Of a stretch of 57,523 nucleotides of DNA, positions 4,800 through 49,085 are shown one piece after another. Numbering within the stretch: the first letter of the stretch is position 1; every line of letters starts with the position of its first letter. This stretch comes from Patescibacteria group bacterium. GTDB taxonomy: Bacteria; Patescibacteriota; Gracilibacteria; JAHISY01. The notes under the pieces were generated by a model. That model searched no databases, had not been told where the DNA came from, and saw nothing but the letters and a program-made list of their open reading frames with translations. Location: the NCBI GenBank assembly GCA_043797545.1, contig JAZDPN010000073.1:1-57523 (forward strand), read 5' to 3'. Position numbers and translations under genes: made by a program.

Positions 4800-5336
4800 A
4801 TGAATGAACTCGACAAAAATCGCAAAATTTTGCACGAGACTTTCGAGTTGGGGATTTTGGTAAAAGGGATCGATGGTATTTTGGAAGTCATCGGCGGGGC
4901 GCTTTTGCTTTTGCTCCAGCCGGCGCAAATCAATTCGCTAATTGTCTGGCTGACGCAACACGAACTCGCGCAAGACTCGCACGATTTGCTCGCAAATTAC
5001 CTCGTGAAATTGGGGAGTAATCTTTCGCTCGACGCGCAAGTTTTTGGCGCGATTTATCTGCTGATTCACGGAGTGATCAAAGTCGCGCTGATTTTGGGTT
5101 TGTGGAAAAAGAAATTAATCGCGTATCCGCTCGCGATTATTTTTCTCGCGCTTTTTATCGTTTATCAAATCTACAGATATGTTCAACAGCCCGCGCTGTG
5201 GCTAGTTATTTTAAGCGTTTTCGACGCCGCGATGATCTTCCTGACTTGGGCTGAGTATCGACAAGTCAAAAAGAAATTGGTGTTTCTAGAACTTGAAGAT
5301 CGACAACAGAATACTGGCTTTTCAACCAGGGTTTGA
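4800..5336 (+). CDS. DUF2127-like integral membrane protein
   Basis: Four predicted TM helices. The overall pattern (LGILVKGIDGILEVIGGALLL ... WKKKLIAYPLAII ... IYRYV) resembles DUF2127. Confidence 0.5.
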   Translation: MNELDKNRKILHETFELGILVKGIDGILEVIGGALLLLLQPAQINSLIVWLTQHELAQDSHDLLANYLVKLGSNLSLDAQVFGAIYLLIHGVIKVALILGLWKKKLIAYPLAIIFLALFIVYQIYRYVQQPALWLVILSVFDAAMIFLTWAEYRQVKKKLVFLELEDRQQNTGFSTRV

Positions 5337-5571
5337 TATGGTAAATTCCGCCCCTTTAATTTTTAAGAGGTGGAAACATCCGGAAAAAAATCATCCTTGC
5401 TCGAAAGGATGCTGCCCAAAAAATTACTTTGGTTGGCGCAAGTAGTGCGAGAAGAAGTCGTGTACGCAATCATTAATTTTCGCGCAAAAAAGTCCAAGCC
5501 TCTTAAGCCTGGATTGCCCGGAGCTTTACATTTGACAGGAATTTCTTCGGTAAAGCCAAAGAAAAAAATAA

Positions 5572-6570
5572 TTACTTCTCGTTAATCGTCTCTTTCACTT
5601 TCACGCCGAAATGTCGGCCAGCGTCCTCGACGAACGCGAGAACCTCGTCGCCTTTTTTCAGTTTCGTGATCGAGATCGGTTTACCGTTCGGCTGAGTCAG
5701 GCGAATTGTTTCGGCATTTTGCATCACGAGCGAAATCGGCTTCGTGCCAACTTTGCCACGGACATGGAGCATCGGCCGTTTTTCGATTTTCGCGCGACCA
5801 ACCGCGAGTGGAAAAGTGTTGCCCTTTTCATCGCAAATCAAAATCTGTTTGCCCGCGCCAACTTCGTTGAGATAGCCGGTTTTGTTGTCTGGGAGACGCA
5901 CATACGCGTGCACCGCGCCGACATTCACGCGAAACGGACGCGGATCGCAATACGGACTTTCGACATTTTCGTTGAAAACGAGAAACATCGCCGAGCTGGA
6001 ATCTCCCGCGAGAATTCCCTGTCCGGGAGTGAGAATCGCGGTCGTGTCGACACACACGCGGTCGGCGACACCGACCGGCTCGGTCGACTCAATCTTCGCG
6101 CGAACGAGCTGCAATTTTTCGTTGTTCGCCTCACGGACGACTTTTCCCGTTGCGACGATCTCGGCGGGTTTCGCGGTTTCGAGGAGGATTCCATCCGCGC
6201 CGACTTCCATCGTCGTGAGCGCGAGTTTCGCTTTTTGCGCGTTCGGGACGGATTGAATGATTTTGGTGGTTTTGGAGATCAAATTCTCGAGCGGAATGAT
6301 CGACCAGTCCTTGTTGCGAATAATCTTCCAAACGCGCTCTCCGGCCGCGACAACGTCATTCTCGACCTCTTTCGCGGTGATCGTGAACTCGCGGACATCT
6401 TTGCCAATTTTCAAATCCCCGTCTTCGGCGACGATCTGGATCAGCCCCAATTCTTTCGCTTTCTTCGCAAAACCTTTCGGCAAAACAAGCGCGTCGGCTC
6501 CGGACTCGATCGCGGTCGTGACCAAATTTTTGTTCCATTTCGGGATGGAAACCCAAAAAAGTTTTTTCAT
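5572..6570 (-). CDS. 3-dehydroquinate synthase II (archaeal-type DHQS, AroB-prime)-like
   Basis: N-terminus KKLFWVSIPKWNKNLVTTAIESGADALVL, later VHAYV and ETIRL segments, and a length of about 330 aa fit my recollection of the PF01959 family. Assigned from memory only. Confidence 0.5.
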   Translation of the reverse strand: MKKLFWVSIPKWNKNLVTTAIESGADALVLPKGFAKKAKELGLIQIVAEDGDLKIGKDVREFTITAKEVENDVVAAGERVWKIIRNKDWSIIPLENLISKTTKIIQSVPNAQKAKLALTTMEVGADGILLETAKPAEIVATGKVVREANNEKLQLVRAKIESTEPVGVADRVCVDTTAILTPGQGILAGDSSSAMFLVFNENVESPYCDPRPFRVNVGAVHAYVRLPDNKTGYLNEVGAGKQILICDEKGNTFPLAVGRAKIEKRPMLHVRGKVGTKPISLVMQNAETIRLTQPNGKPISITKLKKGDEVLAFVEDAGRHFGVKVKETINEK

Positions 6571-6638
6571 AAATGAATTAGGACTCGGAAATTTTAGCAT
6601 CTCTTGAATTTGAGGGGGAGTGCGCTAAACTCGTCGGG

Positions 6639-7208
6639 ATGCAAATTTCTTACTTTGGCCAGCTCGGCTTTCTTTTGAAAGGATCGGACGCCTCGGTCGC
6701 TCTGGCTCTGCCTGCCGACAAAATCGGGGAAGCCGAAATCGTGATCACCGCGACCGAAGATGAGGTCATCAAGGCTAGCAGCAAACAAACTGTTTTCGAT
6801 TGGCCGGGAGAATACGAATCCAAGGGCGTGAGCGTGGCTCTGATTCCTGTCGGCAAAGACAAACCTTCCCGTATCGCCAAAGTTATCATTGACGGAATCG
6901 CGCTAGTCCATCTCGACGGAGTGAGCGAACCGCTAACCGAAAAGGAAGAAGAAAAGATCGGGAATGTTGATTTGCTTTTAATTTCGATTGGCAAAAATGC
7001 CACTCTCGACGCCAAGCAAATTAAAAATACCATCGAAGCGCTTGAGCCGAAAATCGTAATTCCGATGAATTTCGCGGACGGCGAGGAAAAAGAATTCGCG
7101 AAACAGCTCGGTTTCGGCGAGGCCGAAGCGGAAAACGATTTGAAATTGAAAGCGAGCAGTCTGCCGTCTGACCGGATGGAGCTCAAAATTTTGAGGTCGA
7201 GGAAATAG
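6639..7208 (+). CDS. UPF0173/MBL-fold hydrolase-like protein lacking the HxHxDH metal motif
   Basis: MQISYFGQLGFLLKG..., PGEYESKGV, VDLLLISIG and PKIVIPMNF align with the family pattern. The position of the His motif reads EIVITATEDE. Confidence 0.45.
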   Translation: MQISYFGQLGFLLKGSDASVALALPADKIGEAEIVITATEDEVIKASSKQTVFDWPGEYESKGVSVALIPVGKDKPSRIAKVIIDGIALVHLDGVSEPLTEKEEEKIGNVDLLLISIGKNATLDAKQIKNTIEALEPKIVIPMNFADGEEKEFAKQLGFGEAEAENDLKLKASSLPSDRMELKILRSRK

Positions 7209-11920: not shown

Positions 11921-12203
11921 TTTGGACGAAAACAAGGCGTGAAAATAATTTCAAATGTAGCGCAACTCGATTTGATTGCACACAAAATTTGTTCGGGTAA
12001 ATTGGAGCCAATTCTTTCACATTCCCCCAAAGGGGAGCCGACTAAACATCGGTTCGCGAACTCGTCGCGAGGCCAAATCGCTCACAAAATTTAAGGGGCT
12101 TCGTACATTCTCTCGGTCAAATACGATCGCGGGAAGAAACCCCACCTGAATTACAGGATTGCTGCTTTCCGGAGCAGACGGTGTGAAAGAAGAATATCGA
12201 GAA

Positions 12204-12232
12204 CCTTCCCGATGCCTATCGGGAGGGTTTTT
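12204..12232. terminator. Hairpin CCTTCCCGAT-GCCT-ATCGGGAGG + TTTTT (possibly bidirectional)
   Basis: A 10-bp stem followed by a T run on the + strand. It sits directly after the stop of the minus-strand gene that ends at 12236. Confidence 0.55.
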
Positions 12233-12235
12233 GTC

Positions 12236-13144
12236 TTACCTGAAAGCAATCAAAGTGCCATACATAGTATGGGGAGCGTATTTTGCATTTTGCGCGAGCA
12301 AACCCTTTTCAAAAGTCTCCTTTACTGAGTTATCCGACCCGAAATTCAACTCCTCGGCCGTGACTGGTGGAATCGGCTGAATCTCGTTTGTGTTATTGGT
12401 TCTTTTAATCCCGACATAACCCAACTCGCTGTCAATCACCCGACCAGGATATTCGTGACGGTAACTAGTCTTCACGTCCTCGTCGAGCTCACTCATTTTT
12501 TTCATCTCTTGATCGCTGCCCAACTCGCCCCACTTGCCGTTTTTTTGACCACAAAAATACGAGTTCAAATTCTTTTCGCGAGCGGCGGCGAGAAAATTTT
12601 TGACCGCAGCGGGATTGTGCGAAATCGCGACAAACGCATCGACATTTTGCGAAAAGAAAAGTTGGTTGAGCTCTTTCGCGATCGGCGTCCCGCGCGAATT
12701 GGGATCGACGACGGTCAGCATCAAATCGGCGACGTGCGAATTTTGCGGCCCATCGGAAGTCAAACTGCTCGCGAAACCGACAGCTTTGCCATCTTTCATC
12801 GCGACAAAAATACGATCCGACTCGCAAATTTCATTGAGATTGGCGACTGCTTCTTGATAAATTTTTGGGTCTGTCGGATTCCAATTAATTTTTCTATCGC
12901 GCGGCGCAAATGCGACGGTCGACAACTTGCCGAAAAGTCGCACCAATGAATTTTCGTTTGCTTGTGACTTCCAAATTTCCGAATCAGTCACATCAATCTG
13001 CAAAACTTCATAACCCGGCAGATTCGCGGTTTCCAGTTTTTTGATTTTGCAACCGAGTGGACTCGACAAAACATTGGTGATTTCTCTTCGCCCGGAACGA
13101 GAAATTGGAGATTCGGAATTTGGTTTATGCTGATCGACCATCAC
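12236..13144 (-). CDS. Hypothetical protein, possible GNAT-like central region
   Basis: Long ORF with ordinary composition. The segment FVAMKDGKAVGFASSL...VVDPNSRGTPIAKEL is reminiscent of an acetyltransferase fold. Confidence 0.4.
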   Translation of the reverse strand: MMVDQHKPNSESPISRSGRREITNVLSSPLGCKIKKLETANLPGYEVLQIDVTDSEIWKSQANENSLVRLFGKLSTVAFAPRDRKINWNPTDPKIYQEAVANLNEICESDRIFVAMKDGKAVGFASSLTSDGPQNSHVADLMLTVVDPNSRGTPIAKELNQLFFSQNVDAFVAISHNPAAVKNFLAAAREKNLNSYFCGQKNGKWGELGSDQEMKKMSELDEDVKTSYRHEYPGRVIDSELGYVGIKRTNNTNEIQPIPPVTAEELNFGSDNSVKETFEKGLLAQNAKYAPHTMYGTLIAFR

Positions 13145-13189
13145 AAAAATCCGCCAATTTTAGCAGAAATATAAGCTAAAAACAATTCG

Positions 13190-13232
13190 TTTTATTTCAA
13201 ATACTCATCCCACGCCTTGATCGGCAACTCGA
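13190..13232. repeat. Direct repeat, left copy: duplicate of the last 13 codons, stop codon and 3 downstream nt of carB
   Basis: GTTTTATTTCAAATACTCATCCCACGCCTTGATCGGCAACTCGA matches 14560-14602 with one mismatch. Confidence 0.9.
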
Positions 13233-13280
13233 CTAACAATCCATCACTTTACTCGAACGTATTTCAATTTTTTATAAAAT

Positions 13281-13475
13281 ATGTTAAAATGCGCAGAAAC
13301 AAAAACTATGAAATCCAAACAAAAATCACTCCTGCCGCTTGCGGCTGAGATGCTGCAAACGCTCGACGCGGCACAAGAAAAAGAATTGGCACGCAAAAAA
13401 ATACTCGCGAAACGAACCGAGGAACTTTCTTCGCGAATCGAAGATTTCGAACAAACACAAAAACTTTTGGGTTAA
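13281..13475 (+). CDS. Small coiled-coil protein (64 aa), cassette gene 1
   Basis: ORF in an AT-rich segment. Its stop overlaps the next start (TAATG). Confidence 0.4.
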   Translation: MLKCAETKTMKSKQKSLLPLAAEMLQTLDAAQEKELARKKILAKRTEELSSRIEDFEQTQKLLG

Positions 13476-14560
13476 TGTCAATCGAAAACAAAGACCGACC
13501 ACCTGTTGCCAAAACAGAAACTGAGCTTGAGCGTTTAATGCCCGAGTACGCCGAAATGCGTGATGCGATTATTAATGTAGAGGTGGCCGCAAACAAAATG
13601 GAGCTGCAAAAAAGACAAGCCGACGATATTAACAATGAAATCGTTGATCGTCTGTCAACAATTAAAGTGAAAATAGATCAGCTCGCCAAAAAATATCCCG
13701 ACAACGATAGTCTGCGGATACTTATGGATATGTACGAAGATATTAGTCAGGATTTTATTTACAGTAGGAAAACTCGGGTTGACACAAGTTTGCAAAAAAG
13801 ATTGGCGGAAGTGCAAAAATCTGTCGTCGATGCTGGAATTACTACCGTTCCCTCGGAAAATATTGATAACCCGAAAACAAAAGAATTGGTCGCAAAGATG
13901 CAGCAACTCGGAATCCCGATTGAACGAGTCACAACTCGCCCAAACGCAGACCGAACTGTGATTCTGATAGTCTGGGCCCATCCCAATCCCGGGATGAATG
14001 AGGAAGTAAGAAAGGAGTTCGGCATCTTTGAAAGTCAAAACAAAGTTAATGATTATATTGCCAAATTATCTCAAGCTGGAATTTCAAATCATGTACTTAC
14101 CGAGGGAATTCCGGCCAATATAAGTCCTGAGCTTAAGGCAAAAGTCTTAGCTGAAATGGCCCAAAATGGGTTTCCGTTTATAAATTTAACAAATATTTCT
14201 ATTGAGGGTGTCGAAAACAAAGCTTTTTTGCTAAAAACAGCAACCGATTTAAGTTCAGCTAATTACCAAATCAGGGCAACTATCAACAATATAGTCATGG
14301 CTCACAACATCGAAAATTCTATGCGGTCTGGAGAGGTTTCGATCGCCGTCATGGGCGCGGCTCACGAATTTGAAATCGATCAGAGCGAACATCAATTGTC
14401 TTACTCGCAGGCCACCTCTTTCGAAGCTAATGCTAATGTGATTGTCATAAATACGGCAAGGGAGTTCTACGAAGCTACTCGCGACCCTAAAAAAATGGAG
14501 CTCATGAAGCAAGCAGCAGCCAATTTTCAGGCAGGGATTAAAGAACAGTTTTCGAAATAG
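13475..14560 (+). CDS. Hypothetical protein (361 aa), cassette gene 2
   Basis: Long AT-rich ORF with an N-terminal coiled coil. The C-terminal half carries VWAHPNP and VMGAAHEFE motifs. I can assign no family with confidence. Confidence 0.55.
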   Translation: MSIENKDRPPVAKTETELERLMPEYAEMRDAIINVEVAANKMELQKRQADDINNEIVDRLSTIKVKIDQLAKKYPDNDSLRILMDMYEDISQDFIYSRKTRVDTSLQKRLAEVQKSVVDAGITTVPSENIDNPKTKELVAKMQQLGIPIERVTTRPNADRTVILIVWAHPNPGMNEEVRKEFGIFESQNKVNDYIAKLSQAGISNHVLTEGIPANISPELKAKVLAEMAQNGFPFINLTNISIEGVENKAFLLKTATDLSSANYQIRATINNIVMAHNIENSMRSGEVSIAVMGAAHEFEIDQSEHQLSYSQATSFEANANVIVINTAREFYEATRDPKKMELMKQAAANFQAGIKEQFSK

Positions 14561-14602
14561 TTTTATTTCAAATACTCATCCCACGCCTTGATCGGCAGCT
14601 CG
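14560..14602. repeat. Direct repeat, right copy (functional 3' end of carB)
   Basis: See 13190-13232. Confidence 0.9.
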
Positions 14603-17600
14603 AGATCGCGATATTGCTCGAGCGAATCGACAACCAATTTCGCAACCTGCGGATTGACGAACAACGGAATGCCGAAGTCCGTCGCGCGGCGGCGAATCAG
14701 ATAGCCGTTCGTCATTTCCTCGGCTTGATAATTTTTCGGAATATTCACGACCATGCCAATTTGTTTTTGGGCAAAAAGGTCGAGGACGTTTGGCTTCTGC
14801 TTCTCGAGCGGAAAATGCACCAAAGTATTCGCCACACCGTTGTCGGTCAAAAAGCGAGAAGTGCCCGGCGTCGCGAAAAGTTTGAAACCCATCGCGATCA
14901 GTTTTTGCGCGGAGGGGAGGAAGGCCAATTTCGAATCAATCGATCCAGTCGAGATGAGAATATTTTTCTTCGGCAAACGGAAGCCGACCGCGATCTGCGC
15001 TTTGAGAAAAGCTTCGTGCAAATTCTCGCCGAAACACGCGACTTCGCCGGTCGACGCCATCTCGACGCCGAGCGTCGGATCCGCACCTTTGAGCCGCGAG
15101 AAAGAAAACTGCGCGGCTTTCACGCCGACGTGATTGAGGTCGAGAGTTTGGTAGTTTTGTTTCCGCCACGCTTTCGGCGCGACTTTGCCGAGCATCGCCT
15201 CGATCGCGATCGCGATGAAATTGTGCCCGGCAGTTTTGGAAACGAACGGGAACGAGCGGCTAGCTCGTAAATTTAACTCTATGACCGCGACACGATTTTC
15301 TTTCGCGAGAAATTGAATGTTGAATGGGCCAGTGATTTTGAGTTCCGCGGCCAATTTTTTCGCGATAATTTTGATGCGTTTAATCGTCTCGAGATAAGTT
15401 TTTTGCGGCGGCAAAACCAAAGTCGCGTCGCCCGAGTGGACGCCAGCATTTTCGACATGCTCGGAAACCGCGAAAATTACGAGCTTCCCGTCGGCGGCGA
15501 CTCCGTCGAAATCGATTTCGCGCGCGCCTTCTTCAAATTTCGAAATCACGACGGGCGCGTCGGTTGAAATTTTCGTGGCCTTGGCCAGATAATTTTGGAG
15601 CTGCTCGGCGGTGAACGCGACGGACATCGCCGCGCCGGAGAGAACATAACTCGGACGAACGAGCACCGGGTAGCCGACTTTTTTCGCGAATGACATCGCG
15701 TCAGAATTTTGGGTGAACTCGGACCACTGCGGTTGGTCGATCTCGAGCGAATCGCAAAGCTGCGAGAATTTTTCGCGCGACTCGGCGCGGTCGATCGAAA
15801 CCGGGGAAGTTCCGAAAATCGGAACTTTTTCCGCCGCCAATTTTCCGACGAGATTATTCGGAATTTGTCCGCCCGTCGAGACGACGACGCCTTTCGGTTT
15901 CGTGAAATCGAGAATGTCGAGGACGCGCTCGACGGAAAGCTCGTCGAAATAAAGTTGGTCGCAGGAGTCGTAATCCGTCGAAACAGTCTCGGGATTGTAA
16001 TTGATCATGATTGTCTCGAAACCGTTTTTCGCTAAAGTTTGGACGGCGGAGACACAGCACCAATCGAATTCGACGGACGAACCAATGCAGTACGCGCCGC
16101 TTCCCAAAACAACCGCGCGGGGCCGTAGCCCGCCGAAGCTCGAAGAGCGAAGGCCGGGTTTTTTGGAGAATTTAATTTCGTCGCTCGTATCGCCGTGGTA
16201 GGTCAAATAAAGATAATTTGTTTTCGCGGGAAACTCCGCAGCAAAAGTGTCGATTTTTTTGACGACCGGGAGAATACCGAATTTTTTGCGGCGTTTGCGA
16301 ATTTCCAATTCTCCGACGCCCGCACGCCACGCGATTTGCGAATCGGAAAAGCCCAATTTTTTTGCACGGGAAAACTCGTCTTTCGACAATTTTCCTTTTT
16401 GGGCTTTGAGAATGTCGCGCTCGAAGTCGGCGATGTTTTTGCATTTTTCGAGAAACCACTCGTCGATGCCGGTCAGTTTTTTAATTTTTGCGACCGACCA
16501 ACCGTCGCGCAGCGCGCGCGCGATCGCGAAAATTCTTTCCGGCGTCGGCTTGGAAATAACTTTTTCGAGCGAGTCGAATTTGAAATTGGCGTGACTGAAA
16601 CCGTACGCGCCGACCTGCAACATGCGCAGCGCTTTTTGCAAAACTTCCTCGAACGAGCGACCGATCGCCATCACTTCGCCGACCGATTTCATTTCGCTGC
16701 CAATCTCGGCGGAAACTTTACGGAATTTTTGGAGATCCCAGCGCGGGATTTTGAGAACGAGATAATCGAGCGCCGGTTCGAAACACGCGGTCGTGTTGCC
16801 GGTCACCGCATTCGGGACTTCGTCGAGTCTTTTGCCGAGCGCGAGTTTCGCAGCGACATGCGCGAGCGGATAGCCGGTCGCTTTCGACGCGAGCGCGGAG
16901 GAGCGCGACAAGCGCGCATTTACTTCGATCACACGATAATCAATTTTGTGCGGATCGGTCGGATTCGGATGCAGCGCGTATTGAATATTGCATTCGCCGA
17001 CGATGCCGAGGTGTCGAATCACGCGAATCCCGATTTCGCGGAGCGCGTGATATTCGTAATTGTTCAAAGTTTGCGACGGCGCGACGACGATCGACTCGCC
17101 GGTGTGAATGCCGAGCGGATCGAAATTTTCCATGTTACAAACCGTCAAACAGGTGTCGGCGGAATCGCGAACGACTTCGTATTCGATTTCTTTCCAGCCG
17201 CGCAAATCTTCTTCGATCAAAACTTGCGGCGACGCCGAGAACGCGACTTCGAGTAATTTTTTCAGCTCGGCAGGATTTTGAGCGAAGCCCGAGCCTTTGC
17301 CACCGAGCGCGTATGCTGCGCGAACAATCACCGGGAAACCAATTTTTTTGGCGGCGGCGATTCCTTCAGCTTCGTTGCGCACGGCTTGCGCACGCGCGGT
17401 CGTCACTCCAATTTCGTTTAATTTTTTGACGAAAAGTTCGCGGTCTTCGGTCGCCTCGATCGCAGAAATTTGCGTGCCGAGAACTCGAACTTTGTGTTTT
17501 TTGAAAACACCGCGCTTTTCCAGCTCAACTCCGCAATTGAGCGCGGTCTGACCACCGAAAGCTAGCAAAATTCCGTCCGGCTTTTCTTTTTCGATGATCC

Positions 17601-17838
17601 GCTCGACAAAGCGGGGGGTGACCGGGAGGAAATAAACGCGGTCCGCCACCCCGGCTGAAGTTTGATTCGTAGCAATGTTCGGATTGACCAAAATCGTTTC
17701 GATTTTTTCTTCTTTCAGGGCTTTGATGGCTTGACTACCAGAATAATCGAATTCCCCTGCCTCGCCGATTTTTAGAGCGCCAGAACCGAGTACGAGAACC
17801 TTTCGAACTTTCTCCGAATAGGCCTTTTTGAGCTTCAT
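14563..17838 (-). CDS. carB: Carbamoyl-phosphate synthase large subunit
   Basis: Duplicated ATP-grasp architecture: KVLVLGSGALKIGEAGEFDYSG and a second VVLGSGAYCIGSSVEFDWCCV. The C-terminal domain is MGS-like. Length 1091 aa. Confidence 0.9.
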   Translation of the reverse strand: MKLKKAYSEKVRKVLVLGSGALKIGEAGEFDYSGSQAIKALKEEKIETILVNPNIATNQTSAGVADRVYFLPVTPRFVERIIEKEKPDGILLAFGGQTALNCGVELEKRGVFKKHKVRVLGTQISAIEATEDRELFVKKLNEIGVTTARAQAVRNEAEGIAAAKKIGFPVIVRAAYALGGKGSGFAQNPAELKKLLEVAFSASPQVLIEEDLRGWKEIEYEVVRDSADTCLTVCNMENFDPLGIHTGESIVVAPSQTLNNYEYHALREIGIRVIRHLGIVGECNIQYALHPNPTDPHKIDYRVIEVNARLSRSSALASKATGYPLAHVAAKLALGKRLDEVPNAVTGNTTACFEPALDYLVLKIPRWDLQKFRKVSAEIGSEMKSVGEVMAIGRSFEEVLQKALRMLQVGAYGFSHANFKFDSLEKVISKPTPERIFAIARALRDGWSVAKIKKLTGIDEWFLEKCKNIADFERDILKAQKGKLSKDEFSRAKKLGFSDSQIAWRAGVGELEIRKRRKKFGILPVVKKIDTFAAEFPAKTNYLYLTYHGDTSDEIKFSKKPGLRSSSFGGLRPRAVVLGSGAYCIGSSVEFDWCCVSAVQTLAKNGFETIMINYNPETVSTDYDSCDQLYFDELSVERVLDILDFTKPKGVVVSTGGQIPNNLVGKLAAEKVPIFGTSPVSIDRAESREKFSQLCDSLEIDQPQWSEFTQNSDAMSFAKKVGYPVLVRPSYVLSGAAMSVAFTAEQLQNYLAKATKISTDAPVVISKFEEGAREIDFDGVAADGKLVIFAVSEHVENAGVHSGDATLVLPPQKTYLETIKRIKIIAKKLAAELKITGPFNIQFLAKENRVAVIELNLRASRSFPFVSKTAGHNFIAIAIEAMLGKVAPKAWRKQNYQTLDLNHVGVKAAQFSFSRLKGADPTLGVEMASTGEVACFGENLHEAFLKAQIAVGFRLPKKNILISTGSIDSKLAFLPSAQKLIAMGFKLFATPGTSRFLTDNGVANTLVHFPLEKQKPNVLDLFAQKQIGMVVNIPKNYQAEEMTNGYLIRRRATDFGIPLFVNPQVAKLVVDSLEQYRDLELPIKAWDEYLK
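16119..16158. repeat. GC-rich hairpin element related to the murD/PLP hairpins, inside the carB inter-half linker
   Basis: GGGGCCGTAGCCCGCCGAAGCTCGAAGAGCGAAGGCCGGG shares CCGTAGCC..GCCGAAGC..GCGAAGGC with 1868-1896 and 1478-1503. It encodes GLRSSSFGGLRP just before the second GSG motif. Confidence 0.5.
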
Positions 17839-17993
17839 CTGGTGGATTTTAGCGAATTTTTGGGGAAATTCCATAACTTGACAAAAAAACACGATAATTT
17901 CAATAAATGTCTATTTTCATTGAAAAACAAGCCCGATTCTGCTAAAATACCCAGATTCCTTTTCTAAAGGGAGCAAGTTTAAAAAAAATAAAA

Positions 17994-18500
17994 TTGAATC
18001 CCAAAACCCAAACCGCACTCGCCCAAGTCCACCACGGCGAGATTCGCCACACCTTTTACTCGCCTGACTTTTTGGAATATCAGCGCGGCCCGGTCTGGTA
18101 TCTGGTCGCCGGATTTGTCGGCCTGGGAATCATTGCTCTCGGCATCCTGACTCATGCCATTAGTCTGACTCTAGCTTTTCTGACTTTTCTGGGCGTTTAC
18201 TGGCTGATTCACAATCGTGAGCCGAAAATTTTGGAAATCGCGATTACCCAGAATGGTTTTCGTATTGAGGGTGAACCGTTCATTCCTTTCGGCGAAATTA
18301 CCGAATTTTGGTTAATTTACAATCCACCTTTTGTCGCCGACCTGAAATTGCGCATCAAGCAAAGCTGGAACTCCGTGCGCACGATTCACATCTTCGGCCA
18401 AGATCCGGAAGAATTGAGACGCTTGCTCGCACCGCACATCACAGAGGTCTCGAAGGAAGAGGAGTTGAGCGATTTAATCGTGCGCGCTCTCAGACTTTAA
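17994..18500 (+). CDS. Hypothetical membrane protein (2 TM + soluble domain)
   Basis: ORF with a TTG start, two TM helices, and 1 nt spacing to the next gene. Confidence 0.5.
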   Translation: MNPKTQTALAQVHHGEIRHTFYSPDFLEYQRGPVWYLVAGFVGLGIIALGILTHAISLTLAFLTFLGVYWLIHNREPKILEIAITQNGFRIEGEPFIPFGEITEFWLIYNPPFVADLKLRIKQSWNSVRTIHIFGQDPEELRRLLAPHITEVSKEEELSDLIVRALRL

Positions 18501-18501
18501 A

Positions 18502-19956
18502 ATGAGCTATGGAACCCCAAATCTCGAACATCCCCGCTTGACGCGACCGCTTACCGAGTCGCGACAAGACCCTGAAGCCCGCAGAAATCCCGAGGCTGAA
18601 AAGTCTGTCGGCAAACAGCTAGAAGCTCTGAAAGAAGAGGTCGAATCGACTAAACGGGCGCAGGAGTTCGTGGTGAAAAACAGTTTGGATTTGGAAATCG
18701 AAACGCGCATCGGCGCGCTGAGCGCAGCGCCAGATTTCCCTTTTCGCAAAAATATTTACGAACGCATGATGTTCGGACAAAAGTGCATTCTCAAAAATAA
18801 TTTAGTGGCCGGACTGAGAAAGGCCATCGAAAAAAATCGGAAGATTGATGATGCCGAGCTGGAAAAAATTGCCCGGGAGACCATCGAGAATTGGCTGGGC
18901 GAATTGAAAAAACTCGACCGGAATGGTGACAAAAAGATAACCTACACTGAGCTCATTCCAAAAACCAAAGAGGCGAAAGAATTTATCGAGCGCGTTTTCG
19001 TGACCAATGAGTTTTTTGTTGAAATGGAAAACAGTCCGCTCTTCCAAGGTGAGCCGAAAGTCGACGAGAACGTTCCCAAAAAAAGTGCTTTCGTAAAAGA
19101 TTATGTTTCGCGGTTTGCAAAAAGCTTGATTCGGGTCGGAAAAGACGGCCAGACCGTCGAAGCTGTTCCTGGTAGCGGCCTGCAGCTGGGCCAGCTTTTG
19201 CAATCCATCAGCCTAAGCGTAGTCGGAGGGAAATTCTTAACCAATAAGGATTTCGGGAAAGCTTGGGAGGAGCTCAAAACTCAAGATGCGAACGTAGCCA
19301 AAGTTTTCGCCGAAGGCGAAAAGCAAAATGCGCAAGAGAAATTTGAAAAGATGCTCGAAAAAACGAGTGAGCAGATTCGTGCGATGCGAATGGGTGCAGA
19401 TGCCGATCAGCGAAAACTCTTGCAACTAGAAGCGTCCAATCCGCACGGCTTCACCTTGCGAAAGTTTGGCGACATGACCAGCATCATAATGTATTACGGC
19501 TCAAATCTGCTTTTCGCCACGATCGGCGTGAATGCTGTCTTGTCGGGATTCAATCCTGAGGCCATGCTGAAAAATCCAGTCATGTGGGCGATGGCCGCCG
19601 GAATTTTGGCAGCCAAAAAACACCTCAATCCCGAATTCATGAGCGGCACGCCGCCGATTCAGAAAGTCGAACAAAACGAACTGAAAGAGCGCTTCGCGAA
19701 AGCTGCGCCCGCAGTCCAGGAATGGCTGACAAAATTTTCGAAAGGTGACCTCGGGCCGAAAGAGAAAATAGGCAAGCTATTAGCTGAAGAAGGTCGGTAC
19801 GAAATTAATTCAGCCGAAATCGAGAATTTCGTGAAGCCGGAAAATCGACCCGCATCGAAAGTCCTAGCTAATTCGTCTGAGGCGCGCGAACTATTTTTAT
19901 TTTTCCAAGCCTGCCAACAGCGCGACTTTAATCCTAAAAAACTAGCCGATGCCTAA
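18502..19956 (+). CDS. Hypothetical protein with a canonical EF-hand loop and two C-terminal TM helices
   Basis: DRNGDKKITYTE (aa 139-150) fits the 12-residue EF-hand loop. Hydrophobic segments lie at about aa 335-375. Confidence 0.55.
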   Translation: MSYGTPNLEHPRLTRPLTESRQDPEARRNPEAEKSVGKQLEALKEEVESTKRAQEFVVKNSLDLEIETRIGALSAAPDFPFRKNIYERMMFGQKCILKNNLVAGLRKAIEKNRKIDDAELEKIARETIENWLGELKKLDRNGDKKITYTELIPKTKEAKEFIERVFVTNEFFVEMENSPLFQGEPKVDENVPKKSAFVKDYVSRFAKSLIRVGKDGQTVEAVPGSGLQLGQLLQSISLSVVGGKFLTNKDFGKAWEELKTQDANVAKVFAEGEKQNAQEKFEKMLEKTSEQIRAMRMGADADQRKLLQLEASNPHGFTLRKFGDMTSIIMYYGSNLLFATIGVNAVLSGFNPEAMLKNPVMWAMAAGILAAKKHLNPEFMSGTPPIQKVEQNELKERFAKAAPAVQEWLTKFSKGDLGPKEKIGKLLAEEGRYEINSAEIENFVKPENRPASKVLANSSEARELFLFFQACQQRDFNPKKLADA

Positions 19957-21970
19957 ACTCCTCAAGCTTTTCGCGAAAATTTCGCGCTGGATCTTGCCGG
20001 TCGCCGGTTTGTTTTTGATCGGCTTCTTGCTCGCCCAGCCCACTCTAGCGGCAGAGCCAGCCGCGCAAAGAAGTCTGATCGATACTTCGGTAAGCGGATT
20101 GATGGGCATCTTTTCTTTCATAATTATAATTATCGTTTTTCTCTCTTATCTCTTCGCCTTTTTGGCGGGAGACTTGATGGACAGCACCTACATCCTCGAT
20201 AGCGGTATGGGCGATACCCTGCACCTCATTTGGAATGTGATGCGCAATTTTGTAAATATTGCTTTTGTTCTGCTTTTGCTAGTTATCGCCGCACGGGTAA
20301 TCTTCGGCGGAAGCGGTGACAATAAAGGCCTGGGCTTACTAAAGAAGGTTTTGCCTAAGTTTGTGCTTGCGCTTGTTTTGGTGAATCTAACTTTCTTCGC
20401 CGCACGCTTCGTCCTCTCGGCCAATGACGTCATGACGACTGTGATCTTCACGCTCCCGAGAACCGTCTCTGGTGACAAAATGATCAAGATCCCCTGCTCG
20501 GCGACTGATCCGACTACCTGCCGCGACCAAATTTGGCAAAGAATAAAGGGTGATGGTCAAGCGTTAGGAGCAACCAGCGCAGGCAGCACGACTGCAAATG
20601 GTACTGACCCGCAAGCCTCGGCGGACACGAAAGAAAAATTAAAAAAAATGGTTGACTCTCTAATGAGGGGCAGCGTCTACCACCGTATTTCTGACATGGT
20701 CGATCGCAAGAGTGTCACGCTCGTCCTGCTGACGGGTATGCTTGATCTAGAACATCTCGTCTATACCAAAGGCGTGACTGGTGATAGCTGGGACGCGATC
20801 ATCGGCGGACTCGGCGCGATGATCACGGCTGGCGCGATCGGCATAGTGATCTTCATGCTTTTCCTCGCGCTCGTAGTCAGGATGGTCGTGCTGTGGCTCT
20901 GTATCGCCGTCTCACCAGCAGCAGCATTGGCGATGGTCCTATCCGACGTCGTTCCCAAAGCCGACACGAAAAGTTTTGATGTCTTATCGATTTTTCTGAA
21001 GCACGCTTTCATGCCGACGATGGTCGCGATTCCGCTCTCAGTCGGACTGATCATGATCTTCGCGAACAATTCAGTCGATTACAATTACTCTTTGAATTCG
21101 CTCTTTTCGTTTAGTGATTCTGGGCATGCTGGTAATTTCCACGCGATTTTGTGGTGGGTCGCTTCGATCGCGATCATCTGGGTCGGCACGAATAAGATGA
21201 TCTCGGCTTCGAGCGAATACGCCAAGGGTATCACTGAGAAAATCCACGGCGGTGTAAATAAATTCGTCAAAGGTACGGCTGGCTTAGCGGCCTACGCGCC
21301 GATTATTCCGAGCTTCGGAACCACCAAGATGAGCCTTAAAGACGTGGGCAGATTACCGGGCGAGTTCCAAGGAAGGCTAGAGGGCATGAGTCGCGCTGGT
21401 AGAGATGCTGTTGTCAATGAAGTATTTGGTGGGCCTCCGACTCCTCCGCCAGTCAATGATCTGGCTACTAGGGTTCACGCTGATGTAAATGATCCGGCAA
21501 CCAATAACGATCTAGCCGCACGACTGAGAAAGGTGCTGGACTCGTTTACCCAACACGCCAATGGGCGTGGCGATGGTAACGCGAATATCGGTGATCGTCT
21601 TGCTGATGATCTCGCAAGCCTGCCCGGTATGAGGGGGAGAATTAACGGGAACATGACTCTCAACCAAGCCTTGAATGAACTCCGGCAAGCGCATCACAGC
21701 CATGCAGGAGATATTGATCGTGTCTTGGGTTTATTCGCTCAAAATGCACGGCAAGCTAGCGGCAATCCTGCGGTCACCACGCCTGCAGCTCCTGCTGCTA
21801 ACAACCATCCTGCTGGCACTCCAGCTCCTGCTGGTACTCCCGCTGCACCTACACAACCTGCCCCGGCTCCTGCTGGTGCTCCCGCTGCACCTGCTGCACA
21901 ACCTGCCCCGGCTGCTGGTACTCCTCCTCCAGCCGGTAATCCTCCGGCTACCCCAGCTCCAACTAGGTAA
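19949..21970 (+). CDS. Polytopic membrane protein with a Pro/Ala-rich C-terminal tail (TrbL/VirB6-like topology, unverified)
   Basis: Signal/TM at the N-terminus, at least 8 TM helices, and a C-terminal 70 aa of PAxPA repeats. The ATG overlaps the previous stop (ATGCCTAA). Confidence 0.55.
   Translation: MPKLLKLFAKISRWILPVAGLFLIGFLLAQPTLAAEPAAQRSLIDTSVSGLMGIFSFIIIIIVFLSYLFAFLAGDLMDSTYILDSGMGDTLHLIWNVMRNFVNIAFVLLLLVIAARVIFGGSGDNKGLGLLKKVLPKFVLALVLVNLTFFAARFVLSANDVMTTVIFTLPRTVSGDKMIKIPCSATDPTTCRDQIWQRIKGDGQALGATSAGSTTANGTDPQASADTKEKLKKMVDSLMRGSVYHRISDMVDRKSVTLVLLTGMLDLEHLVYTKGVTGDSWDAIIGGLGAMITAGAIGIVIFMLFLALVVRMVVLWLCIAVSPAAALAMVLSDVVPKADTKSFDVLSIFLKHAFMPTMVAIPLSVGLIMIFANNSVDYNYSLNSLFSFSDSGHAGNFHAILWWVASIAIIWVGTNKMISASSEYAKGITEKIHGGVNKFVKGTAGLAAYAPIIPSFGTTKMSLKDVGRLPGEFQGRLEGMSRAGRDAVVNEVFGGPPTPPPVNDLATRVHADVNDPATNNDLAARLRKVLDSFTQHANGRGDGNANIGDRLADDLASLPGMRGRINGNMTLNQALNELRQAHHSHAGDIDRVLGLFAQNARQASGNPAVTTPAAPAANNHPAGTPAPAGTPAAPTQPAPAPAGAPAAPAAQPAPAAGTPPPAGNPPATPAPTR
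21824..21928 (+). repeat. Tandem 42/45-nt coding repeat (Pro/Ala-rich tail)
   Basis: GCTCCTGCTGGTACTCCCGCTGCACCTACACAACCTGCCCCG is followed by GCTCCTGCTGGTGCTCCCGCTGCACCTGCTGCACAACCTGCCCCG and a partial third unit. Confidence 0.85.
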
Positions 21971-22019: not shown

Positions 22020-22577
22020 ATGTCCGCCCAAAAAGATTTTTATTCGATTACCCGCGAGGAAGCCGCTGAAAAATTGGGTATTTCGACACGCACGCTCGAC
22101 CGCTATTTGAAGCGCGGAAAATTGAAATTCAAACTCTCGCCGAGTCGGCAAGTTTTGATTCACGCCCAGGATTTGGAAAGGGTCGCGAAAATTTTGGCGA
22201 AAATTCCTGCGCCAAAAAAGGTCAGCCCGAAAGAAAAAACTTTTGCGGCCTCGGCCGAGGCCGAAGCTTTTGAGATCCCAACCGAGGCCGTCGAGGAAAA
22301 AATTTTTCGCGAGCTGTACGAGGAGGCGAATAAGGATTTAAAAGCGAAACAGGAAAAACTTGAAGCAGCGAGCTTCCGCGTCGGTCAGCTCGAGGCGCAG
22401 CTCAAAAGCTCAGTTCCTTTGCTTGAACACAAACAAAAAGAACAGGAGATGCATAGTGAAAATTCACGCCTTAAGGAAAAACTCGTCGGGGCCATCCTGA
22501 AGAGTTGGGTTTTCCTCGGCATAGCCATATTCGCGACGATCGTCGCAGTCGTTTTGGGTTTCTTGAATTATCTGTAA
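22020..22577 (+). CDS. HTH (excisionase/MerR-like) - coiled coil - C-terminal TM anchor protein
   Basis: ITREEAAEKLGISTRTLDRYLKRGKL is an HTH_17-type motif. It is followed by a long coiled coil and a terminal hydrophobic helix. Confidence 0.55.
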   Translation: MSAQKDFYSITREEAAEKLGISTRTLDRYLKRGKLKFKLSPSRQVLIHAQDLERVAKILAKIPAPKKVSPKEKTFAASAEAEAFEIPTEAVEEKIFRELYEEANKDLKAKQEKLEAASFRVGQLEAQLKSSVPLLEHKQKEQEMHSENSRLKEKLVGAILKSWVFLGIAIFATIVAVVLGFLNYL

Positions 22578-42779: not shown

Positions 42780-45092
42780 ATGCAAACAAAAATCATCGCG
42801 AGCCTGCTCGGAATGATCAGCTTAATTTGCTTGGCAAATCCGGCTTTGGCAAGCCAAGTGCCTGCTGGATACGTCCTCGTCCCAGCCGATGTTTTCTTCG
42901 GACAAGGCTCAAGTGTTATCGCTCCGAACACCACTGTGGCCGAGGTTTCGACTAGCAAATCGAGTGTCCGGGTCAACGACGAAATTGGTTATGTCGGTGA
43001 AAAATACTCAGTCGCAACCGTCACTCTGCGCGACGAGGCGAATCGACCAGTCGCCGGGGAAAGCGTAACCCTGATTTCTTCGCGGGCAACCGACTCAATC
43101 AAGGCTTTGCAAAACGAAACAAATTCCAATGGTGAAGCCTCTTTCCAGGTTTTAGCCAAAGGAGAAGGTGTTAGCTCTCTGACAGCTCTCGCGGGCAATC
43201 AAACAATTCTCGAACGACCACGCATTGTCTTTTTGCAGAAGGCCGGAGGCATCGGTGGAAACCTCTTACGAGCTGACGTCGTGACGGCCAGCGCACCGAC
43301 AAAAAAAACGGTTGCAGCAACGCTAACTACTAATCAGGTTTTTGCGGATTTCCCCAATACAATCAAGGCCGACACACCAACCGACATTACGGTCACAATC
43401 AAAGATGCTGACGGGAAAATCGTAGAGGATTTTCGCGGAACGATTAATTTCCAGAGTTCCGACTCGCTTGCGATTCTGCCCAAAGAATATACGTTCGGCG
43501 AACTCGACCGTGGTTCACATAATTTTGCTAATGCTGTCACCATGCTGACGGCAGGCGACCAAACAATCACAATTGCTGGCGACACAAATCTGGGTTCGCA
43601 GGAGGTTCCTGTGAAAGTCTTGGACGGAGTGGGCGGAGTCGCGACACCCGTAATCACCAGCCCGACTGACGGCGCACTTTTGAATAAGACAGTCTTGCTC
43701 GAAGGACTCGCTCCGGTAAACTCAAATCTTGTTGTTTTCACGGATGGCCAATTTTTGAAAAATGGGCAATCTGACGGCGACGGTAAGTTTTTGATCGATG
43801 CTGACTTAGTAGACGGACAGCACGAAATTACGGTCGGTGTTTTGAAAAACGACAGCTCTGTCGGAGCTGTCTCGGAAGCTATTAGGGTTAATCTTGATAA
43901 AACCAAGCCTGTTTTGGAAGATGTTTCTCTCGACCCGGGCAACCGCGTCGTGAGCGGCCAGCTCGTGAAAATAACCGTTAAAAGTGAGTCTGCTCTCGCC
44001 GGAGCGCAGTTCCGGATTGAGAATGAATCCGATGATTTGATTGAGTCATCGGTCGCCGGAACATACACTGGCGAATTCACCGCTCCGGCCGACGGTGCTT
44101 ATTTCGTAAGCGTCGAGTTGACTGATAAGGCCGGGAATATTGGCTCTTTCCCGGAAGCAACCAGCATCCTTGTCGAAGTACCGATTACAATTGAAAAAGT
44201 CGAAACTACACCCCGCGATGGTCGAGTGGATTTACGCTGGGATGCACCGGCGAATACGGCTAGCATCGCGCATTACGAAATTTTTTACGGGACGGATAAA
44301 GAACAGCTCGACAAGAAATTCACGACGACAGATAATCGCACGGCCTGGTTTATTGATAACCTAAACAACAACACAAAATACTTTTTTCGCGTCGTTTCGG
44401 TCGACGCTGACAGCAAGCAAAATGGTGGCAGCGAGATTGTCCAGGCGACTCCGACCGCTATGGTCGCAGCAACCGGTTGTGATTCAAAAATTATTTTAAG
44501 CTGGCAGACGCCGACTAATTCCAAGATCGCTAATTATCGACTCGACTACGGAGTCGCAAGCGGTGATTACGCCGAGAGTCGATTACTTTCGGGTGGCAAA
44601 AAATTAAAACAGTGGGAGGTGCGTGATCTCGTGAATGGTTCACCTTATTTTTTCGCTTTGCGCGGAGTCGATGACTTCGGCGAAGTCGTCGCCGATATGG
44701 GTGAGGTCAGCGCGACTCCGACCGCGGGCGAGGTCTGCGGCTCGATCGAACCAATTCAGCTTTTTCAGAAAAGAGATGCTGCTGGCAACATTTTCCTGGT
44801 TTGGAACCCTGTTGCCGGTGCGACCAGTTATCGGATTTACGCCGGGACGCAGCCAAATGTCTTTGATCTACCAACAGTCGAGGTCGCCGCAAATGCTTTT
44901 CAGCCTAAAGGGCTCGCCAAAAACACTGATTACTATTTTGCGGTAAGCGCGGTTTTTTCCGGAGTCCACAACGCCGCGACCCTGTCAAACGTCACCAAGG
45001 TCGAGGTCGGGCCAGCCGAAATAATTTTCATCTCCCTGATCGCGGCCTTCGTGGGCAGCCTCCTGATTAGGCGAAAATTTTCCCGGAGCTAA
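42780..45092 (+). CDS. Large surface protein with Ig-like (Big) and fibronectin type III repeats and a C-terminal TM anchor
   Basis: Signal peptide, invasin-like SVTLISSRATD...NGEASFQV, several FN3-like W..P modules, and a terminal hydrophobic helix plus RRKFSRS. Confidence 0.65.
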   Translation: MQTKIIASLLGMISLICLANPALASQVPAGYVLVPADVFFGQGSSVIAPNTTVAEVSTSKSSVRVNDEIGYVGEKYSVATVTLRDEANRPVAGESVTLISSRATDSIKALQNETNSNGEASFQVLAKGEGVSSLTALAGNQTILERPRIVFLQKAGGIGGNLLRADVVTASAPTKKTVAATLTTNQVFADFPNTIKADTPTDITVTIKDADGKIVEDFRGTINFQSSDSLAILPKEYTFGELDRGSHNFANAVTMLTAGDQTITIAGDTNLGSQEVPVKVLDGVGGVATPVITSPTDGALLNKTVLLEGLAPVNSNLVVFTDGQFLKNGQSDGDGKFLIDADLVDGQHEITVGVLKNDSSVGAVSEAIRVNLDKTKPVLEDVSLDPGNRVVSGQLVKITVKSESALAGAQFRIENESDDLIESSVAGTYTGEFTAPADGAYFVSVELTDKAGNIGSFPEATSILVEVPITIEKVETTPRDGRVDLRWDAPANTASIAHYEIFYGTDKEQLDKKFTTTDNRTAWFIDNLNNNTKYFFRVVSVDADSKQNGGSEIVQATPTAMVAATGCDSKIILSWQTPTNSKIANYRLDYGVASGDYAESRLLSGGKKLKQWEVRDLVNGSPYFFALRGVDDFGEVVADMGEVSATPTAGEVCGSIEPIQLFQKRDAAGNIFLVWNPVAGATSYRIYAGTQPNVFDLPTVEVAANAFQPKGLAKNTDYYFAVSAVFSGVHNAATLSNVTKVEVGPAEIIFISLIAAFVGSLLIRRKFSRS

Positions 45093-45532
45093 AAAGGTAA
45101 ATCGTCGATCTTCACCTCTTCTTCGTCTGTTTGTGCCGGAGCGCTTTGCGGCGCGGATTTGGCGGCCGGAGCGGAACCAGCGGAGAATGAGCCGCCGCCA
45201 CGCGAATCGAGCATGATCATGTTCTCAGCTATGATCTCGGTACGGTAATTCTTCTTGCCGTCAGGGTCTTCCCAAGAACGAGTCTTGAGTCGGCCTTCGA
45301 AATAAGTCTTGGCGCCTTTTTTTAAATACTGTTGGCAAATCTCGGCTAGCTTGCCCCAAACAACCACATTGTGAAATTCGGCCTCTTCTTGGAGTTCGCC
45401 AGCCGCGTTTTTCCATTTCCGGTTTGTGGCAATCCCAATCGTCGCAACGGTCTGGCCATTCGGCGTCTGACGCACCTCCGGGTCGCGTGTGAGGTTGCCG
45501 ATTACTTGGACTTTGTTGAGAGAGCTGGCCAT
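45089..45532 (-). CDS. ssb: Single-stranded DNA-binding protein (canonical, acidic tip DDLPF)
   Basis: OB fold LNKVQVIGNLTRDPEVR, a Gly/Ala-rich linker, and the C-terminal IDDLPF. Confidence 0.9.
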   Translation of the reverse strand: MASSLNKVQVIGNLTRDPEVRQTPNGQTVATIGIATNRKWKNAAGELQEEAEFHNVVVWGKLAEICQQYLKKGAKTYFEGRLKTRSWEDPDGKKNYRTEIIAENMIMLDSRGGGSFSAGSAPAAKSAPQSAPAQTDEEEVKIDDLPF

Positions 45533-45661
45533 GGCAAAAGGAGTTATTAAAGCGCTGCGATTTTAACAAATCCTAAAACATACCAAGCATTTTTTATTGA
45601 ACGCGCAAGCCAATTTTTGGACCCTTACTTTGGGTGAATCTGCTAAAATTTGGCTCTCAAA

Positions 45662-46924: not shown

Positions 46925-47122
46925 TTTTCCAAAAAATTATTTAAATAATTTTTTAAATTTTCTTTCTCTTAATTTCAATTCTTAAATTCTTTTAAAAAAC
47001 ACCACTTTCCAAAATCTTTTCCAAAATTTATCCACAAAATTTCTTACTTATTCTTAAAAACTAATTATTCAACCATTTTTCGCTTAAATGAATCAACTAG
47101 TTCTTACTTATTAATTAAAAGA
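46925..47122 (+). promoter_or_regulatory. 198-bp AT-rich leader upstream of cimA with a 12-nt direct repeat and one consensus DnaA box
   Basis: TTCTTACTTATT occurs at 47041-47052 and 47101-47112. TTATCCACA is at 47028-47036. TTTCCAAAA words recur. Confidence 0.4.
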
Positions 47123-48707: not shown

Positions 48708-49085
48708 CTATTTATCACCGGGCTCTTCCACATTCACTTCGTTGTTGCCGGATTCACCTTTGCCCCACTTGAGGATGTTGAGCGTGTCGAGAACGACCTC
48801 AGTGATGGTTCTTTTTTGTCCTTCTTTCTCGAATTGGCTATTGTGCAGGCGGCCTTCCACGAAGACGCCCATACCCTTTTTGAGCCACTTTTCAGCAGTT
48901 TCCGCGAGATGTCCCCAGGCGGTGATCCGGTGGAAGTCGGTATATTGCCTTTTTTCGCCATCGACAGTCCGGTCGTAGTTCGTGGCGATGGAAAAACTGG
49001 CGACCTTTTTGCCAGCCTTAGTCTCGCGCACTTCGGGGTCGCCAGTGAGGTGACCGATGAGGATTACTCGATTGATGCTGCGCAT
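48708..49085 (-). CDS. Second SSB paralog lacking the acidic C-terminal tip
   Basis: OB fold INRVILIGHLTGDPEVRETKAGKKVASFSIATN. It ends in VEEPGDK with no D-D-(I/L)-P-F. Confidence 0.75.
   Translation of the reverse strand: MRSINRVILIGHLTGDPEVRETKAGKKVASFSIATNYDRTVDGEKRQYTDFHRITAWGHLAETAEKWLKKGMGVFVEGRLHNSQFEKEGQKRTITEVVLDTLNILKWGKGESGNNEVNVEEPGDK

Follow-up and report, generated by a model that had tools for sequence, protein, structure and literature searches.

How do two genes come to lie between an intact housekeeping gene and a second copy of that gene's own end? The question is raised by a 57,523-nucleotide stretch of DNA from a Patescibacteria group bacterium (contig JAZDPN010000073.1 of assembly GCA_043797545.1), which was analysed whole and is called the window below. 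Behind carB, the gene for the large subunit of carbamoyl-phosphate synthase, the window carries an AT-rich pair of genes (hereafter the cassette) bracketed by two direct copies of the carB 3′ end. A sequence-only reading had taken this pair for a small integrated accessory module. Our results suggest that (i) the cassette is accessory cargo of a recombination hot spot behind carB; (ii) two alleles of this hot spot may recently have been joined in tandem by host recombination, a reading to which we give a probability of about 0.45; and (iii) the larger gene probably encodes a TIKI-like hydrolase, as the invariant residues of its product and weak fold matches suggest, and forms a conserved pair with its small partner.

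Mobile DNA and gene flow are poorly charted in Patescibacteria, and this locus is a well-bounded case, with a hot spot of at least eight contents in about 16 genomes and one very recent junction. It also brings to light a protein family of 67 clusters that has no Pfam, NCBIfam, PHROG or PADLOC model; its members are obligatorily paired with a small protein, and a confident model and a probable TIKI-like active site offer experimental handles. If the repeat were an attachment (att) site, it would reveal a recombinase system acting on gene 3′ ends in Patescibacteria; if it is not, the locus shows, as a natural example, how accessory genes become stacked in one place by illegitimate joins. Current ideas would stand in either case.

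The cassette and its flanking repeat

The features on which the argument turns are the following.

13189–13232, reverse strand: left repeat copy, a displaced, non-functional carB terminus (13 codons, stop codon and 3 nt)
13233–13307, forward strand: cassette leader, with a promoter-like extended −10 box TGTTAAAAT (13282–13290) and 5′ untranslated region, assigned by likeness to other loci of the family
13308–13475, forward strand: small partner gene, 55 amino acids (aa), predicted helical (MKSKQKSLLPLAAE...ELSSRIEDFEQTQKLLG), with homologues in six loci
13475–14560, forward strand: gene of a 361-aa protein of an unannotated family, with an N-terminal four-helix region and an alpha/beta domain
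14560–14603, reverse strand: right repeat copy, the functional carB 3′ end (last 13 codons, stop codon and 3 nt)
14563–17892, reverse strand: carB, intact and convergent with the cassette, ending ...ELPIKAWDEYLK and stop

The direct repeat, GTTTTATTTCAAATACTCATCCCACGCCTTGATCGGCA(A/G)CTCGA, is real. Its copies are 44 bp long, identical at 43 of the 44 positions and spaced 1371 bp from start to start; the sequence-only reading had recognized them, although it gave 43 bp and placed one end of each copy one base off. The 35-nt core of the repeat has no third match in the window at up to three mismatches, and none of 100 dinucleotide shuffles matched. As had been proposed, the right copy is the true end of carB, which retains its Pfam domains (CPSase_L_D2, D1, D3 and MGS). 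The left copy is a non-functional remnant, immediately preceded by an in-frame stop, and lies 44 nt upstream of the GTG start (13144) of a gene for a GNAT-like acetyltransferase. The sole mismatch between the copies (13227 A versus 14598 G) is a synonymous leucine change (TTG/CTG) in the carB frame. The larger cassette gene was also correctly said to stop at the repeat boundary: the right copy opens with the G of that gene's TAG stop codon.

The left copy differs by one nucleotide from the window's own carB end, by one from that of the closest relative (L019), by two from that of L021 and by seven to nine from those of L038 and L005. It is therefore derived from a carB of the immediate clade formed by the window, L019 and L021. 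The window carB differs from those of L019 and L021 by 11–16% at the DNA level, compared with at most one change per 44 nt in the left copy. Because this copy is non-coding yet nearly unchanged, it has had almost no time to drift and is recent.

Two minor observations concern the repeat ends. The inner end coincides with a CTCGAG (XhoI-type) sequence in carB (13228–13233 and 14599–14604); the left copy ends ...CTCGA, which is what the filling-in of a C^TCGAG cut would leave, and CTCGAC is the sequence of the hybrid junction. This may be the trace of a restriction break or possibly chance, for which our own rough estimate is about 1 in 12. A likeness of the bases to the left of the left copy to the sequence that follows the carB stop in L021 and L025 was withdrawn, as those are coding ends of convergent genes there and the similarity is short and AT-rich.

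Between the repeat copies lie 1,327 unique bp with a GC content of 0.411, compared with a window mean of 0.491 (z = −2.7), which places them among the lowest 2.5% of same-size windows. GC content at third codon positions (GC3) is 0.41 in the cassette and 0.52–0.62 in nine other genes of the window. The AT-richness seen by eye is thus borne out by both the sliding-window and the codon comparison.

The cassette is a compact operon that consists of a promoter-like box, the small gene, the large gene and almost nothing else. The two reading frames overlap as TAATG, as had been read. The leader sequence AAAATATGTTAAAAT(G/A)C(G/A)C(A/T)GAAA(C/T)AAAA is common to the cassettes of the window and of L001, a family locus outside the carB site, and the L003 and L004 cassettes have TGGTATAAT boxes at the same position as the window's box. 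This likeness suggests that the box is a promoter; a generic promoter scan did not list the 13282–13290 site. No terminal inverted repeats pair the cassette ends. The layout differs from that of an integron cassette in having its own promoter-like box and no 3′ palindrome after the second gene, and from that of a transposon or insertion sequence in having neither a transposase nor terminal inverted repeats, with a duplication of 44 bp.

Variable DNA behind carB and the origin of the junction

In about 16 relatives, carB is followed by a variable gap and then by the same RNA-like element, an M50 peptidase gene, rpmB and tRNA-Ser. In the window, two features occupy the space between the left repeat copy and the M50 peptidase gene.

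12236–13144, reverse strand: GNAT-like acetyltransferase gene, 302 aa (Pfam Acetyltransf_1, E 4e-4), outside the repeats
11921–12235, forward strand: structured RNA-like element at the far edge of the variable region, outside the cassette

The gaps after carB are as follows.

L026: 63 bp, no content
L023: 166 bp, no content
L020 and L008: ~200–240 bp, no content
L033: 392 bp, no content
L007 and L022: ~470 bp, a shared open reading frame (ORF) of 92–98 aa
L027: 632 bp, a 133-aa ORF
L019 (closest relative, 87–89% carB identity): 1,013 bp, an unrelated 307-aa ORF
L025: 1,578 bp, a convergent DUF5677 gene
Window: ~2.3 kb, the cassette and the GNAT-like gene

Since the content between carB and the RNA-like element differs from genome to genome, this interval is a hot spot for accessory genes. 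No integrase or transposase occurs among the relatives' hot-spot cargos. The L025 insertion, in a metagenome-assembled genome (MAG) of Peribacteraceae, encodes a 505-aa DUF5677 protein (5204–6721) that is convergent with carB and ends at the carB stop.

Both arrangements that meet in the window were found separately in other samples. In L038, carB is followed by 59 nt, a homologue of the GNAT-like gene (48% identity) and the RNA-like element, with no cassette; this order mirrors the window's left repeat copy, 44-nt spacer and GNAT-like gene. Relative to it, the cassette is an accessory insertion, as the sequence-only reading held. An exact look-up of the window's cassette protein and carB returned no identical record and no empty site of the same strain, so that the cassette-free state is represented by a relative. 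The cassette itself lies next to carB in two further lineages. In L036 (the contig that also carries L021), it is convergent and 7 nt from the carB stop, and the contig covers only the final 59 residues, 56 of which align with 71% identity. In L005 (JGI 3300039186), it is convergent and ~10 nt from the carB stop, with 45% identity. The corresponding carB identities are 84% at the DNA level for L036 and ~75% for L005. Both contigs end within the cassette, as contigs in a polymorphic region would be expected to do. One MAG bin (GCA_043799575.1) holds both L019 (JAZDNQ010000026.1, with the 307-aa ORF) and L021/L036 (JAZDNQ010000035.1, with the cassette); two carB contigs with different hot-spot contents in one bin indicate that it mixes two related strains or species.

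Away from carB, the sequence-only picture of a repeat-flanked, compositionally foreign module largely breaks down. At six loci of the family (L001, L002, L003, L004, L006 and L037), the same gene pair has no flanking repeats and no carB-like remnant beside it, and in L001–L004 the cassette GC equals that of the host contig. The contexts of L001, L003, L004 and L006 all differ; L001 has a restriction-modification system next to it and L004 a PIN gene. L001 and L002 carry the same protein (P0002). In L037 (7709–8960 of JBDRIC010000053.1), a cassette with 32% identity directly follows the gene of a 1007-aa VirB4/TraG-like ATPase (AAA_10, P-loop_TraG) and ends 21 nt from a convergent mraY, and the carB site of the same MAG (L023) is empty. 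A link to phages or plasmids was not borne out either, as tblastn against phage and plasmid records found nothing.

As no integrase, transposase, inverted repeats or att remnant accompanies the cassette, we regard it as cargo of the hot spot, and its description as a self-mobile integrated module is not demonstrated. The only junction that is new with respect to the arrangements seen elsewhere (carB end followed by GNAT in L038; cassette followed by carB in L036 and L005) is 13232/13233. A possible explanation, at our probability of about 0.45, is a recent tandem fusion of two hot-spot alleles through host recombination. This would require an illegitimate join at 13232/13233 as well as a homologous exchange in one of the conserved flanks, which are carB at one side and the RNA-like element with the M50 gene at the other. 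On this view, the left 44-bp copy would represent the terminus of carB in a carB–GNAT allele and end where the alleles diverge, 3 nt past the stop. No gene for its own movement is encoded in the cassette. Similar systems are known: hot spots of horizontal gene transfer flanked by core genes, whose accessory genes are exchanged by homologous recombination in the conserved flanks, and homology-facilitated illegitimate recombination. The window resembles these in its constant neighbours, in the mostly AT-rich content that varies by lineage and in the lack of mobility genes, and its structure can be explained by a single novel junction. The cassette-free junction would read carB end ...GATCTCGAGCTGCC...TAAAAC joined to GAATTGTTTTTAGC (GAATTG...), and an excised circle would join 14559 to 13233. 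The newcomer may have been either the cassette or the GNAT-like gene.

Several points weigh against this reading. The illegitimate join is one that we infer, and a sliding comparison of carB with L019 and L021 revealed no recombination breakpoint; there is only a non-significant shift in the last ~85 nt, where 5 of 8 informative sites favour L021 compared with 32% overall. Exchange at hot spots usually replaces or deletes recipient DNA, and a clean 44-bp duplication of the end of the anchor gene is not known as a standard outcome. Moreover, the cassette occurs at the same gene end in three lineages, and the L036 and L005 contigs are so short that the far boundaries of their cassettes lie off them and a carB-end copy there is possible. 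Cassette GC is ~0.41 in three hosts whose carB has 0.46–0.52, which fits repeated recent arrival better than long residence. Finally, the duplicated 3′ end of a housekeeping gene is typical of att sites, and site-specific integration would explain both this form of the repeat and the recurrence of the cassette at one gene end at least as naturally.

The latter origin would make the cassette a decayed site-specific integrative element, for which tyrosine-recombinase-type crossing of attB with attP over 44 bp would have left the two copies as attL and attR, with the integrase acting in trans or since deleted. Decayed elements that keep att sites without recombination or transfer genes are known as cis-mobilizable elements (CIMEs), and the classical ones, of 1.2–13 kb, lie at the 3′ ends of rpmG, rpsI, fda and rplL in streptococci (PMC7563491). 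The cassette is likewise small (1.37 kb, within this range), carries cargo only and lacks integrase and transfer genes, and its repeats include an intact housekeeping 3′ end. The repeat covers the final 13 codons of carB, its stop and 3 nt and leaves the gene intact, as is usual with elements that target 3′ ends. The deviant GC of the cassette and its absence from the closest relative (L019), although it is present behind carB in L036 and L005, also agree with such an origin, which would account for its repeated presence at carB, in three hosts, with a GC content that has not been ameliorated. However, no integrase or excisionase was found beside the site, in the window or among the relatives' hot-spot cargos, the only related signal being an HTH_17 gene ~7.5 kb off, and no integrative and conjugative element, integrative and mobilizable element or prophage using the site was seen. 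In 14 relatives, several of which have other insertions at this spot, the 4 kb downstream contain no second copy of the carB end. The cassette further differs from classical CIMEs in its Patescibacterial host, in the lack of tandem accretion, and in that its cargo elsewhere and the other hot-spot cargos have no repeats; the family members at other loci also lack a carB-like attP remnant. On balance, we consider a CIME-like origin the main rival of the tandem join, possible but unlikely.

A further alternative is that the cassette is old. It would have been inherited vertically from an ancestor common to the window and L021, and perhaps also to L005, with a loss in L019, and the 44-bp copy would have arisen later by an unrelated local duplication or rearrangement, for example if the GNAT-like gene arrived bearing a piece of a former carB neighbour. 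The adjacency of GNAT and carB is indeed old (48% identity to L038), the composition of the GNAT-like gene is near native (GC 0.468, GC3 0.518), and cassette divergence tracks that of carB (71% protein identity against 84% carB DNA identity for L036; 45% against ~75% for L005). Against this, a GC3 of 0.41 would have failed to approach the host value over that span, and the patchy distribution needs several independent losses. We therefore judge long residence quite improbable. In effect it is the mirror image of the tandem join of two alleles, with the GNAT-like gene as newcomer, and the window alone is compatible with either.

We give still less credence to a broader idea, in which the pair would be an integrase-less mobile cassette of candidate-phyla-radiation bacteria that homes repeatedly to the 3′ ends of carB and other housekeeping genes (such as mraY) through a host or trans-acting recombinase duplicating ~44 bp. 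The TIKI-like hydrolase, restrained by its 55-aa partner, would then serve as an addiction or defence module by which the cassette is retained. A transposition-like insertion with a 44-bp target-site duplication from a wide stagger, as made by Cas1-type integrases with repeat-length duplications, would account for the three non-coding nucleotides that both copies share after the stop, as if from one target, and for an insert trimmed to its functional unit, whose stop codon adjoins one copy and whose promoter region begins ~50 nt away from the second. No transposase, casposase, Cas1 or terminal inverted repeats accompany it, though, and no duplication occurs at the other family loci, which makes it highly improbable. 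To our knowledge, 44 bp is also outside the range of transposase duplications. An assembly chimera of two strains through a shared k-mer can be given hardly any weight: the data are metagenomic, one bin holds two hot-spot alleles (L019 and L021) and the relatives' contigs break in the cassette, but a de Bruijn path can yield the 13232/13233 junction only if it is present in reads, there is a one-base difference between the copies, and both sides are matched independently by the arrangements in other samples (L038; L036 and L005).

The coupled gene pair

The family of the 361-aa protein was found by an exhaustive HMMER scan of 1.84 billion representatives, which returned 67 related clusters, 44 of them below E 1e-10 and mostly of 330–400 aa. 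A word-indexed protein search with the single protein matched only the query, and with the family profile it found almost nothing. NCBIfam, PADLOC and PHROGs hold no family for the protein. Among its longer relatives, no informative fusion was seen, and only one has HEAT repeats.

Conservation and structure prediction point to the same residues. In the alignment of 44 members, D93, H169, Q188, E210, G245, N272, G294 and H297 are invariant and S187, R267 and E298 nearly so (E298 in at least 90%); in a second alignment (A4), H169, E210 and H297 are again invariant. The N-terminal region (~15–119) carries a conserved acidic motif, YPxDPD...MYxDLxxD, and is followed by the alpha/beta domain (~121–336). 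With the 44-member alignment (A1), AlphaFold2 gave a model with pLDDT 93.8 and pTM 0.92; the single-sequence model (pLDDT 40) was uninformative. In the model's secondary structure, the predicted strands 160–167, 206–213 and 288–294 precede or carry H169, E210 and H297–E298. Conservation in the 44 sequences and the predicted secondary structure thus place a set of two histidines and two glutamates at strand ends, as in the TIKI superfamily.

The best Foldseek match in the PDB is RRSP (5w6l, E 0.021, probability 0.97), followed by 6a8j (also RRSP) and by PMT (2ec5, 2ebf and 2ebh). Both are members of the TIKI superfamily, characterized by a parallel beta-sheet core and a 2His/2Glu active site, and RRSP has an N-terminal helical lobe (PMC6254334). 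The modelled protein likewise has a helical lobe ahead of the predicted catalytic lobe, and its predicted parallel strands are each followed by a catalytic-type residue, as in the TIKI hydrolases (Tiki1/2; TraB/PrgY/GumN, PF01963; the erythromycin esterases Bcr135/136; ChaN; HopBA1; and the C2 domain of RRSP/PMT). The only Pfam signal is TraB_PrgY_gumN (PF01963) at residues 271–297 (GAAHE motif; E 0.027, 14.8 bits). The sequence-only reading had sensed a faint Tiki/TraB likeness in the motifs VWAHPNP, TEG and MGAAHE; these contain H169, E210 and H297/E298, respectively, and the predicted fold and the Pfam signal fit that suggestion.

The following points weigh against the assignment. No Foldseek match reaches E ≤ 0.001, and the TM score is ~0.3 over the whole chain. 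The PF01963 score lies below its cut-off of 26.8, and the signal appears in only one of the 44 family members, so that there is no significant match to a family profile; full-length and domain-only profiles found no relative in a sequence search of the PDB. Matches to BFVD folds were noise. The first motif is HPNPG rather than GxxH, while the second is of the GxxH type, and the N-terminal region has a conserved acidic motif of its own, with no signal peptide, membrane anchor or toxin-delivery domain. Weighing both sides, we consider it fairly probable that the 361-aa protein is a TIKI-like hydrolase. It may act as a TIKI/TraB-superfamily-like peptidase or esterase that uses the His/Glu set H169, E210, H297 and E298. 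It is probably cytoplasmic, as no signal peptide or membrane segment is evident on inspection of the sequence by eye.

The small gene is a constant companion. A homologous gene of 54–58 aa lies directly upstream of the large gene, and is coupled to it, in all six readable loci (the same six as above), which supports the view that the two form a conserved, translationally coupled pair. In the alignment of the small proteins, A5, L8, L40 and F47 are invariant; the window's protein is 47% identical to the L001 partner and has an ELSSRIEDF core. The starts of these homologues place the start of the window's small gene at the ATG at 13308, which gives 55 aa. The coupled ORF reported by the sequence-only reading is thus upheld, with a different length: its 64-aa version begins at the ATG at 13281, which lies within the promoter-like box, and is probably too long. 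The small protein has no recognizable DNA-binding domain. It would probably bind the 361-aa protein and regulate or inhibit it. We know of no described TIKI family with such a constant pairing to an upstream gene of ~55 aa.

Type II toxin–antitoxin systems and other two-gene conflict modules share with the cassette a small upstream gene coupled to an enzyme gene, a patchy distribution, AT-richness and some variable or defence-like neighbourhoods. The large protein is, however, far bigger than typical toxins, and neither protein has a known toxin, antitoxin or defence domain: PADLOC assigned no family to either, and Pfam and PHROGs gave only noise.

Host and neighbouring features

The host is a Peribacteria/Gracilibacteria-like Patescibacterium. 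Its carB shares ~75–87% DNA identity with most MAGs of Patescibacteria, Gracilibacteria and Peribacteraceae, and ~70% with the two most distant ones (L027 and L028). The window is ordinary chromosome, with genes for a mur ligase, type II dehydroquinate synthase, dnaN, secA, nrdD and 5S rRNA. No integrase or transposase was found among the ~45 ORFs of the window that were scanned against Pfam.

The GNAT-like gene is absent from 13 relatives, its one detectable homologue being that of L038, and its protein has no relative in species-representative genomes. The RNA-like element is a non-coding stretch of ~280 nt directly after the M50 peptidase stop, with 70–85% identity in more than 10 relatives. 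Of the 42 pairs that RNAalifold predicts, 7 show compensatory double changes; the element contains an inserted hairpin that varies by lineage and ends in a hairpin and a T-run. It has no Rfam match at the gathering score or at E ≤ 1, and ARAGORN finds no tmRNA in it. Probably, the element is a structured RNA that is either strongly diverged or so far undescribed.

Beyond carB, the ORFs between carB and the HTH_17 gene (17994–21970) have no Pfam match and include one for a 673-aa multi-pass membrane protein with a Pro/Ala-rich tail. The HTH_17 (excisionase/MerR-type) protein itself has 185 aa (22020–22577, forward strand). The only other stretch of the window that is as AT-rich as the cassette lies at ~45976–48350. 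It contains a 246-aa ORF (45563–46306, reverse strand) without a Pfam match; the stretch adjoins a LeuA-like gene and sits between two SSB paralogues (45089–45532 and 48708–49085).

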